64,000 nt of DNA from Pseudomonas phage HHBS36_1. Of this stretch, positions 61,040 through 61,310 are shown piece after piece (the stretch's first letter is position 1; every line of letters starts with the position of its first letter). Position numbers and translations under genes: made by a program. Location: sequence record PQ287642.1, one strand, 5' to 3'. Below the pieces are notes generated by a model that was given only the letters and a program-made list of their open reading frames with translations, searched no databases and was not told the origin of the DNA.

Positions 61040-61310
61040 GGTGGATGGGGCTTTGTAGCCCCACGACACCCTCTTCCAAGTTTTGCGACATAGTCGTTTT
61101 TATTTCCCTACCCCCGTACTAAAGAATAAGGAAATTATATATGGGACCCCCCCAAAGGGTCCCCCCCACATATAATTACTATTTATATAAAATTTCTTTT
61201 AAAGAAAAAGCATTTAATAAGGAAAATACTCTTTATTAAAGATATCTATTCTTTAACAACAAGTTACTTATGCGCGGCCGGCCCCGCGAAAAAAAAAATA
61301 AAGTGGAATA
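61040..61310. other. 270-nt ORF-free intergenic element with unusual GC hairpins embedded in AT-rich DNA
   Basis: GGGGCT-ttgt-AGCCCC hairpin (61051-61066); imperfect palindrome AATTATATATG-GGACCCCCCC-AAA-GGGTCCCCCCC-ACATATAATT (61131-61178) containing a direct repeat of GGGNCCCCCCC; GCGCGGCCGGCCCCGCG (61271-61287) followed by A10. Confidence 0.5.

Follow-up and report, generated by a model that had tools for sequence, protein, structure and literature searches.

The early transcripts of phage T7 carry several RNase III sites per genome, and these sites need a particular shape rather than an exact sequence. Replication origins of the T4 type combine a middle promoter with a DNA-unwinding element, and the mitochondrial light-strand promoter and conserved sequence block II (LSP-CSBII) constitute a primer-formation site. 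The phiKZ-like phages are the model in which the phage nucleus, the PhuZ spindle, and transcription independent of the host are studied, and the literature searched contains no mapped origin or packaging site and only a few candidate regulatory RNAs for them. The non-coding RNA (ncRNA) candidates of these phages include a conserved small RNA (sRNA), sRNA005, upstream of phiKZ gp182 and 201phi2-1 gp277 (PMC10914365, PMC11512511). We analysed an intergenic element at positions 61040-61310 of a 64,000-nucleotide (nt) stretch of Pseudomonas phage HHBS36_1 (PQ287642.1; the whole stretch is hereafter called the window), which had been singled out in an original prediction made from the sequence alone. 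The results establish its central part as a structured non-coding module that is new, strongly conserved, and present in one copy per genome in Pseudomonas phiKZ-like phages.

The window belongs to a Pseudomonas jumbo phage of the PA1C/PS119XW type. Its region 60600-61700 showed 99% identity to the Pseudomonas jumbo phages phiHQ, PS119XW, phiLBG22, PA1C, and BRkr, and 81.5% identity to HPP-Temi (genus Pawinskivirus). A query with the 116-nt core matched a single place in every one of 57 Pseudomonas phage records, which belong to several genera and include Phikzvirus, Pawinskivirus, PhiPA3, Psa21, D6, and RVTF4, with 85-99% nucleotide identity. The core was the same or nearly so in PA1C-type phages, phiKZ, PhiPA3, Psa21, D6, RVTF4, and IMG/VR jumbo contigs, and scans of IMG/VR and metagenomes yielded further jumbo-phage contigs with the same core. 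The PhuZ protein of HHBS36_1 is 36-37% identical to that of phiKZ or D6. Compared with HPP-Temi, the hairpin and its flanks (61117-61197) were 97.5% identical, whereas the flanking coding sequences were 68-80% and the segment containing the early promoter and 5′ untranslated region (5′UTR) 66% identical. The element might, according to the original prediction, have turned out to be absent or unconserved in relatives; its core is instead far better kept than the flanking genes.

A covariance model of 15 lineages gave one match in the window (103 bits) and a weaker, syntenic match in Noxifer (32 bits), in which an AU stem, a GC helix with surplus G, and the flank ATCCTTATTCTTTAGTAA are recognisable. 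The 13 kb upstream of PhuZ in EL and OBP gave no match to the model. In 201phi2-1 and contig L174, the flanks TAAATAGTAAT and ATTTC(A/C)TTATTCTTAGTA and an AU stem are retained around a different GC hairpin. The search for further repeat pairs that had been recommended was run: two exact copies of GGGNCCCCCCC were the sole matches in the window, and each related phage record contained one core place. The two C7 runs are also the sole G or C homopolymers of at least 6 in the window. Multiple copies, as expected of a miniature inverted-repeat transposable element (MITE) or a repetitive extragenic palindromic (REP)-like element, were thus not found, with one place per record in 57 records and one model match in 64 kb. 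No paper in the searched literature contains the core sequence.

The 326-nt spacer folded better than its shuffled versions on both strands (z = -4.8 for minus and -4.6 for plus), and the RNAalifold consensus supported the central hairpin, P1, alone. Across the alignment of 15 lineages, three base pairs in the AU stem vary on both sides (AU/UA/GC); the covariation score of this stem was reached by none of 500 shuffles, and all slid registers were far worse. Additional arm variants occur in 201phi2-1, L174, and the metagenome locus L208 (AATAATAT/ATATTATT). These compensatory changes indicate that the stem arms vary freely if they remain complementary; the sequences just outside the arms are almost invariant. 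On the minus strand, the junction between stem and core consists of G.U, U.G, or tandem G.A; on the plus strand, it would consist of A.C or pyrimidine mismatches. The minus-strand fold was better in 15 of 15 lineages, by 2-7 kcal/mol with RNA parameters and 0.7-3.0 kcal/mol with DNA parameters, and in its minimum free energy (MFE) structure a stem of 14 bp is followed by an internal loop rich in G and capped by a short helix. These results establish that the hairpin is kept by base pairing, with its best fold on the gene-sense (minus) strand.

Most of the 15 lineages in the alignment, 201phi2-1 and L174 among them, share the 5′ flank ATAAATAGTAAT unchanged; it is one base short in phiKZ and has one difference in L014. 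The copy at the element is the sole exact one in the window, near-matches being at chance level. The phages and contigs 201phi2-1, L174, and Noxifer retain the 3′ flank ATTTCCTTATTCTTTAGTA. Its complement lies at 61102-61110 (inverted repeat I16), and the flank can form a second helix with a downstream purine-rich segment in PA1C-type phages and, by eye, also in PhiPA3 and phiKZ, at differing distances. The 10-mer TTTCCTTATT within this flank has two exact copies in 64 kb, both in the element, which by eye seem to vary in concert between lineages. Elsewhere in the window the flank motifs recur at chance frequency only, and a recurrent regulatory motif was rejected. A published 5′UTR-derived ncRNA candidate of phiKZ (42692-42806; Table S7, 10.1101/2023.10.13.562163) contains GGTATTTTCCTTATTGATAAAA, which shares the motif TATTTTCCTTATT with the repeated 10-mer.

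The G runs of the hairpin would also permit a minus-strand G-quadruplex, in RNA or in non-template DNA, that acts as a switch competing with the hairpin. The sequence G7ACCCTTTG7 fits the canonical pattern G3-N1-G3-N7-G3-N1-G3; however, a G6 in the 5′ run of PhiPA3, RVTF4, L046, and PS119XW breaks this pattern, the second G-run is missing in 201phi2-1, L174, and Noxifer, and the MFE structure calculated with quadruplex energies was still the hairpin. We regard such a switch as highly improbable.

The homologous site of phiKZ (31131-31248) lies between PHIKZ037 and PHIKZ038, inside the early transcription units TU024 (P017 at 29413 to T016 at 32943) and TU025 determined by ONT-cappable-seq. A sense RNA containing the hairpin thus exists in phiKZ. 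In the same data, the interval 30150-33472 is free of any transcription start site (TSS) on both strands, and no transcription termination site (TTS) falls between T015 (29374) and T016 (32943); TU024 reads through, and the hairpin is therefore not an efficient terminator in phiKZ. This bears on the view that the region is an ordinary spacer, in which terminator hairpins are stacked beside remnants of promoters and the leftover 3′ end of a gene since lost, with the central hairpin as a terminator or insulator. Modules of a terminator followed by a promoter are the rule in phiKZ (e.g., T015/P017 and T014/P016), a terminator-like site was flagged on the minus strand inside the hairpin, and the GC hairpin region aligns to the 3′ end of an open reading frame (ORF) in other lineages. 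Besides the read-through in phiKZ, this view is opposed by sequence constraint: the terminators of these phages show free sequence variation, whereas the hairpin, including its unpaired G's, and the two flanks hardly change from genus to genus. The hairpin has a strength of -21 kcal/mol, its tail AUAUAUAAUUUCCUUAUU is U/A-rich and not a U run, and the terminator scan marks only an inner sub-hairpin. Because the covariance model gives a single match in 64 kb, the hairpin is not a common terminator type either. An ordinary spacer is accordingly considered improbable.

Considering covariation, strand asymmetry, sense transcription in phiKZ, and a leader position in Psa21-type phages, we rank first, and tentatively, the possibility that the element acts as a factor-recognised RNA stem-loop on the gene-sense (minus) transcript at the entry to the PhuZ-region operon. 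In Psa21-type phages, RVTF4, L046, L052, and L014, the element ends approximately 25-45 nt before the start of a small ORF, like a leader. The potential second helix of the 3′ flank also speaks for this possibility. The stem-loop would consist of an AU-rich lower stem of approximately 10 bp and a GC-rich upper part with surplus G on the 5′ side, bordered by the almost invariant and putatively single-stranded flanks AUAAAUAGUAAU (5′) and AUUUCCUUAUUCUUUAGUA (3′). A conserved phage or host factor may recognise the hairpin together with these flanks, and recognition may set the fate of the transcript at this boundary through processing or protection of the new RNA end, attenuation, or control of downstream translation. 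The families of roles proposed originally, a cis-element or origin and a small structured RNA, were appropriate, but the RNA ranked first here is on the minus rather than the plus strand.

Several observations weigh against this sense-strand signal. In HHBS36_1 and PhiPA3 the element lies between a terminator and an early promoter, and the main downstream transcript may omit it. In phiKZ, no processing-derived short RNA, TTS, or TSS has been reported at the site. The phiKZ transposon sequencing (Tn-seq) tables show insertions in all of gp36 to gp40 (PMC12676376), indicating that the neighbours of the element are dispensable in laboratory phiKZ; a regulator of dispensable neighbours that tolerate insertions is not expected to outdo their conservation. 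Furthermore, a plain RNA hairpin does not explain the invariant unpaired G's or a 5′ flank that resembles a TACT box on the opposite strand. The published data are otherwise silent on the locus: the differential RNA sequencing (dRNA-seq) and ONT-cappable-seq studies of phiKZ report nothing there, the portion of the ONT-cappable-seq ncRNA candidate table available to us lists none at 31.1-31.4 kb, the homologous genes are unmentioned in the accessible text of the 201phi2-1 study, and two phage Tn-seq preprints and the ChmC enhanced crosslinking and immunoprecipitation (eCLIP) paper give no per-position information for the element.

The resemblance of the 5′ flank to a promoter box came from a position weight matrix (PWM) built from 16 TSS-mapped phiKZ middle promoters (Table S3, 10.1101/2023.10.13.562163). 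Its top score over both strands of the window was 16.5 bits at 61170-61197 (+), true promoters mostly scoring 8-12 bits in leave-one-out comparisons, and the same relative position scored 8.7-15.5 bits in 10 of 12 other lineages. Because of this match, the flank ATAAATAGTAAT is read as the reverse complement of a TACT box. The element may in that case give rise to a plus-strand, antisense small ncRNA of approximately 100-140 nt, transcribed by the non-virion RNA polymerase from a middle-class promoter with the TACT box ATTACTATTTAT and starting near 61198. This RNA would hold the AT palindrome and the small hairpin, and its 3′ end would fall either at the GC hairpin or at the terminator 61312-61331; the central hairpin would serve as an upstream boundary or operator.

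We consider such an antisense RNA unlikely but, like the DNA-level site discussed below, a serious rival of the sense-strand signal; the conserved promoter match would account for the TACT-box flank. In HHBS36_1 the module is bracketed as an independent unit, and the plus-side tail CTTTATG resembles phiKZ terminators. In most lineages a GC hairpin lies approximately 75-95 nt past the predicted start, followed by an ATTTC- or TTTATG-like tail in L046, L052, L010, D6, and Psa21; in HHBS36_1, however, it precedes A10 and not U. Divergent middle-promoter pairs with palindromic boxes have been mapped in phiKZ (P013/P014 and P038/P039), but ONT-cappable-seq shows no minus-strand TSS (equivalent to window plus) and, in its candidate table as far as available, no ncRNA at 31.1-31.4 kb, where the phiKZ site scores 11.7 bits. 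The score is only 6.5 bits in PhiPA3 and low in L014. The best-kept part, the hairpin with its 3′ flank, lies upstream of the start and would be left unexplained, the predicted RNA body being 87% identical to that of HPP-Temi compared with 97.5% for the hairpin and flanks. The strand asymmetry of the hairpin also favours minus. The earlier proposal of a plus-strand RNA running to the 61312-61331 terminator thus agrees with the direction of the best middle-promoter match and disagrees with the better minus-strand fold and with phiKZ, where no TSS, TTS, or small RNA was reported.

On the sense strand, the PWM gave no consistent middle-promoter site downstream of the hairpin. The phiKZ early promoter motif TATATTAC with an A/T-rich upstream region was not found inside 61040-61310, and a sigma-70 promoter scan gave no site within the element. 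Elsewhere in the window, the second-best middle-promoter match (15.8 bits) is at 41518-41545 (-), in the spacer upstream of the gene at 39392-41257, and an early-promoter-like GAGATCTATATA with a T8/A8 run is present near 41330-41360. A palindrome at 63816-63844, AAATACTG-GATC-TCAGTATTT, which also occurs in the relative L002 (6213-6241), matches the PWM on both strands with approximately 10 bits each and could represent two divergent promoters comparable to phiKZ P013/P014.

Coding potential was rejected on both strands, as start codon, frame, and product are not conserved. PA1C and phiHQ carry an annotation of a tiny plus-strand gene from 61141 (MGPPQRVPP...), with a TAAGGA Shine-Dalgarno sequence 8 nt upstream of its ATG, and the core shows just two point substitutions, GGA to GGG and CAA to CAG, neither of which alters the amino acid encoded in the frame of this gene. 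The ATG is, however, missing in L014, 201phi2-1, and L174, and the Shine-Dalgarno sequence has turned into TAATGA in Psa21, L010, D6, and L208. Changes in C-run length shift the frame, so that tails of approximately 1 to 23 residues follow the common MGPPQRVPP (translated by eye), and the proline codons show no synonymous variation. These features suggest that the ORF annotated over the hairpin is spurious, and a gene at this place is hardly credible. A minus-strand ORF at 60993-61091 is probably not a gene, because the homologous DNA of PhiPA3 is, by reading, in another frame. The spacer can thus be described as free of conserved ORFs, as had been claimed.

The conservation of the element relative to its neighbours is an argument for a cis-acting site at the DNA level, present once per genome: either a replication origin or primer-formation site, in which a promoter would be joined to an AT-rich unwinding region and to a hairpin or cruciform as in T4, or a packaging-initiation (pac) site with a G-run/T-rich/G-run arrangement as in herpesvirus pac1. 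The probability of such a DNA-level site is low in our estimation. Lower still is that of the stronger claim that nucleus-forming Pseudomonas jumbo phages depend on the element as an essential cis-acting site in their DNA, for origin or primer formation or for packaging initiation, recognised through the invariant flanks and a G-rich hairpin in extruded or single-stranded form; such a site, if real, would account for both the single copy and the stricter keeping compared with the dispensable genes nearby. Its placement is independent of transcript layout, being within an operon in phiKZ, in a gap between terminator and promoter in HHBS36_1, and immediately before an ORF in Psa21-type phages. 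The surroundings are approximately 80% AT with a direct-repeat pair, the promoter-like box abuts an AT-rich stretch, G7..TTT..G7 and T10-CGCGGGG lie approximately 135 bp apart on one strand, and these phages lack a mapped origin or pac site in the literature mentioned above.

The origin proposed in the original prediction did not find support in the GC skew, however: cumulative GC skew drops steadily through 56-64 kb with no inflection at the element, and gene orientation does not change there. The T10-CGCGG motif is not kept outside PA1C-type phages and PhiPA3, no deposited record begins its numbering at this place, and the likeness to pac1, pac2, and T4 origins is architectural only. With regard to an AT-rich unwinding region with repeated binding sites, the GC content of 61100-61299 is 0.335, i.e., about two-thirds AT, compared with 43.6% GC for the window; one pair of exact 10-mers 91 nt apart is present, and an iteron array was not found.

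The features of the spacer are collected in Table 1. The three hairpins, the A10 tract, and the terminator were confirmed at the positions claimed for them, and a repeat finder recovered the inverted repeat I5, the direct repeat D3 (spacing 14), I13, and I15. What had been taken for a single element of 270 nt was not borne out as one unit, since cross-genus conservation covers only approximately 61117-61240, plus a GC hairpin that is fixed in position and not in sequence; together these make up a conserved unit of approximately 61117-61290. The segment 61030-61116 is shared only by HPP-Temi and PhiPA3 among the relatives. The hairpins thus differ in evolutionary depth, and they are three hairpins rather than one palindromic element.

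Table 1. Positions of features in and around the spacer, numbered along the window
Feature	Position	Strand	Remarks
Early (virion RNA polymerase) promoter motif CTATATTACC	61007-61016	-	Serves gene 60747-60968; outside the element; like TSS-mapped phiKZ early promoters, e.g., GATCTATATTAC
Compound hairpin GGGTG..(GGGGCT-ttgt-AGCCCC)..CACCC	61039-61071 (inner 61047-61062)		Lineage-specific
32-amino-acid ORF (MSQNLEEGVVGLQSPIHP...)	60993-61091	-	Overlaps compound hairpin and early promoter
Small hairpin GCGACATAGTCGT	61085-61097		Lineage-specific; terminator-like match on plus; kept in HPP-Temi
3′ flank ATTTCCTTATTCTTTAGTA	61117-61135	-	Conserved; cross-genus conservation stops here (alignments A2, A4)
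Central hairpin P1, 45 nt	61133-61177	-	AU-rich lower stem (61133-61142 with 61168-61177) around G/C core 61143-61167; I5
P1, minus-strand reading	61133-61177	-	AAUUAUAUGU-G7ACCC-UUU-G7UCCC-AUAUAUAAUU
P1, plus-strand parts	61133-61177	+	AATTATATAT 61133-61142; GGGACCCCCCC 61143-61153; AAA; GGGTCCCCCCC 61157-61167; ACATATAATT 61168-61177
Direct repeat GGGACCCCCCC/AAA/GGGTCCCCCCC (plus)	61143-61167		G7ACCC-TTT-G7TCCC on minus
32-amino-acid ORF (MGPPQRVPPTYNYY...)	61141-61239	+	Annotated in PA1C, phiHQ; starts inside hairpin; not conserved
phiKZ-middle-promoter-like site ATATAATTACTATTTATATAAAATTTCT	61170-61197	+	Predicted start near 61198, toward 61312-61331; abuts hairpin
5′ flank ATAAATAGTAAT	61175-61186	-	Near-invariant; reverse complement ATTACTATTTAT with TACT box
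AT-only palindrome TTTCTTTTAAAGAAA	61193-61207		I12; in most lineages with slight shifts; covariation not clear
Second copy of 10-mer TTTCCTTATT	61216-61225	-	Direct repeat of 61125-61134, spacing 91 nt (D2)
Small hairpin TCTTTATTAAAGA	61230-61242		Elsewhere ACTTC-GATA-GAAGT or CTCC-GATA-GGAG
GC hairpin GCGCGGCCGGCCCCGCG	61272-61288		FseI site 61276-61283; followed by A10 at 61289-61298; I13
Bidirectional terminator hairpin CCCTCTCC-CGAA-GGAGAGGG	61312-61331		Plus-side CTTTATG; I15; 100% identity in HPP-Temi

The compound hairpin at 61039-61071 was found in PA1C-type phages, HPP-Temi, and PhiPA3 only, where PhiPA3 has GGGACT/AGTCCC as a compensatory change, and it is absent from phiKZ and Psa21-type phages. 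The stem at 61230-61242 occurs as CTTT/AAAG, CTTC/GAAG, or CTCC/GGAG across lineages. A GC-rich stretch at the position of 61272-61288 exists in other lineages too, each with its own sequence; in some contigs, translated by eye, it lies within the 3′ end of an upstream ORF and codes for an RRR motif. The terminator at 61312-61331 is shaped like phiKZ T014 and T015, with a hairpin followed by (C)TTATG. Among the 99%-identical relatives (L001-L006), homopolymer lengths vary: C6 instead of C7 in PS119XW (61143-61167), C4 versus C5 in PS119XW and BRkr (61111-61115), and A7 to A10 (61289-61298), reflecting either real slippage or sequencing error. No Rfam family reached the gathering score in the window, matches on 60900-61400 at E values up to 10 being at chance level and far below gathering, and ARAGORN found 0 tRNA or tmRNA genes in the window.

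The element lies within a 372-nt spacer between the genes at 61341-62126 (-) and 60747-60968 (-). All local genes are on the minus strand without a change in orientation at the element, and the tubulin gene PhuZ is located at 58753-59706. The constant partner of the element is the downstream cluster of a small ORF, a gp38-like gene, and PhuZ, the upstream neighbours varying between lineages and genera. The 261-amino-acid product of 61341-62126 (-) was tried as a homologue of Dip (phiKZ gp37/PHIKZ037), and this was rejected, as BLASTP gave no similarity and PHROGs no match; only the downstream cluster is therefore syntenic. A 42-amino-acid ORF at 60608-60736 (-) (MSAINYNRLMQHAIDNGGKLELVIHASG...) seems, by eye, to have counterparts just 3′ of the element in Psa21-type phages, L046, L052, L010, and L014, and it had no PHROG match.

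Related layouts were also seen elsewhere. A loose pattern, G6NCCC-N1-8-G6NCCC, retrieved mostly GC-rich contigs and poly-G contig ends from IMG/VR, and its AT-rich matches outside jumbo phages were dismissed as unrelated hairpins. A similar arrangement of a flanking inverted repeat, G6-8-N-CCC, a loop, and G6-8-N-CCC is present in the unrelated IMG/VR viral contigs L031 (3615-3687), L042 (153-230), and L043 (762-846), and the same G-surplus layout was noted in L022, L032, L045/L048/L081, L054, and L061; the model R1 gave L043 47.7 bits. Several of these contigs are probably inoviruses, because they are small and encode a Zot-like ATPase, and G-surplus hairpins may form a wider class. In some Psa21-like phages (D6, L088, at approximately 1590-1600; L011, L013, and L207), a C9-C10 run follows the 3′ flank approximately 25 nt before the start of the small ORF and could pair with the G7 runs. 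At the same place, Noxifer (L203, 11640-11690) has the hairpins G5-TATA-C6 and G4-TA-C9.

The element is a small and well-defined target, because it is single-copy, is nearly invariant across genera in which neighbouring proteins share approximately 30-37% identity, and lies between phiKZ genes that tolerate insertions. Like the phiKZ middle promoters, it has an AATTACT box approximately 21 nt before the predicted start at 61170-61197 (+), with a score as high as those of true members; unlike them, it has no TSS mapped at the homologous phiKZ site, and the listed promoters lack a 45-nt GC-cored hairpin directly upstream. A promoter-like box that adjoins very AT-rich DNA and a G-run element, and that is found once per genome, recalls T4 origins and LSP-CSBII, but there is no skew signal, and the G-runs lie upstream, not downstream, of the predicted plus-strand start. 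Similarly, a T-rich core between G-runs, with a T-run by CGCGG on the same strand in HHBS36_1, resembles herpesvirus pac1/pac2 (PMC13595911) in architecture only, and neither phiKZ nor the Psa21-type phages keep the pac2-like part.

Like the ncRNA candidates of phiKZ-like phages, the element is short, structured, and non-coding, lies in an intergenic or 5′UTR position, and is kept between giant-phage genera. It differs from the phiKZ candidates in that it is contained neither in their table nor in the TSS and TTS rows for the region, as far as these are available, and from sRNA005 in its locus upstream of the PhuZ cluster and in nucleotide-level conservation of 85-99% over approximately 90 nt. 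The element also resembles intercistronic processing and stabiliser hairpins such as the early RNase III sites of T7, which share with it two helices with an internal loop, a location between the cistrons of a polycistronic early transcript, and AU-rich flanks that in the element are putatively single-stranded. Unlike those sites, the element of HHBS36_1 is single-copy and invariant at the nucleotide level, including its unpaired G's.

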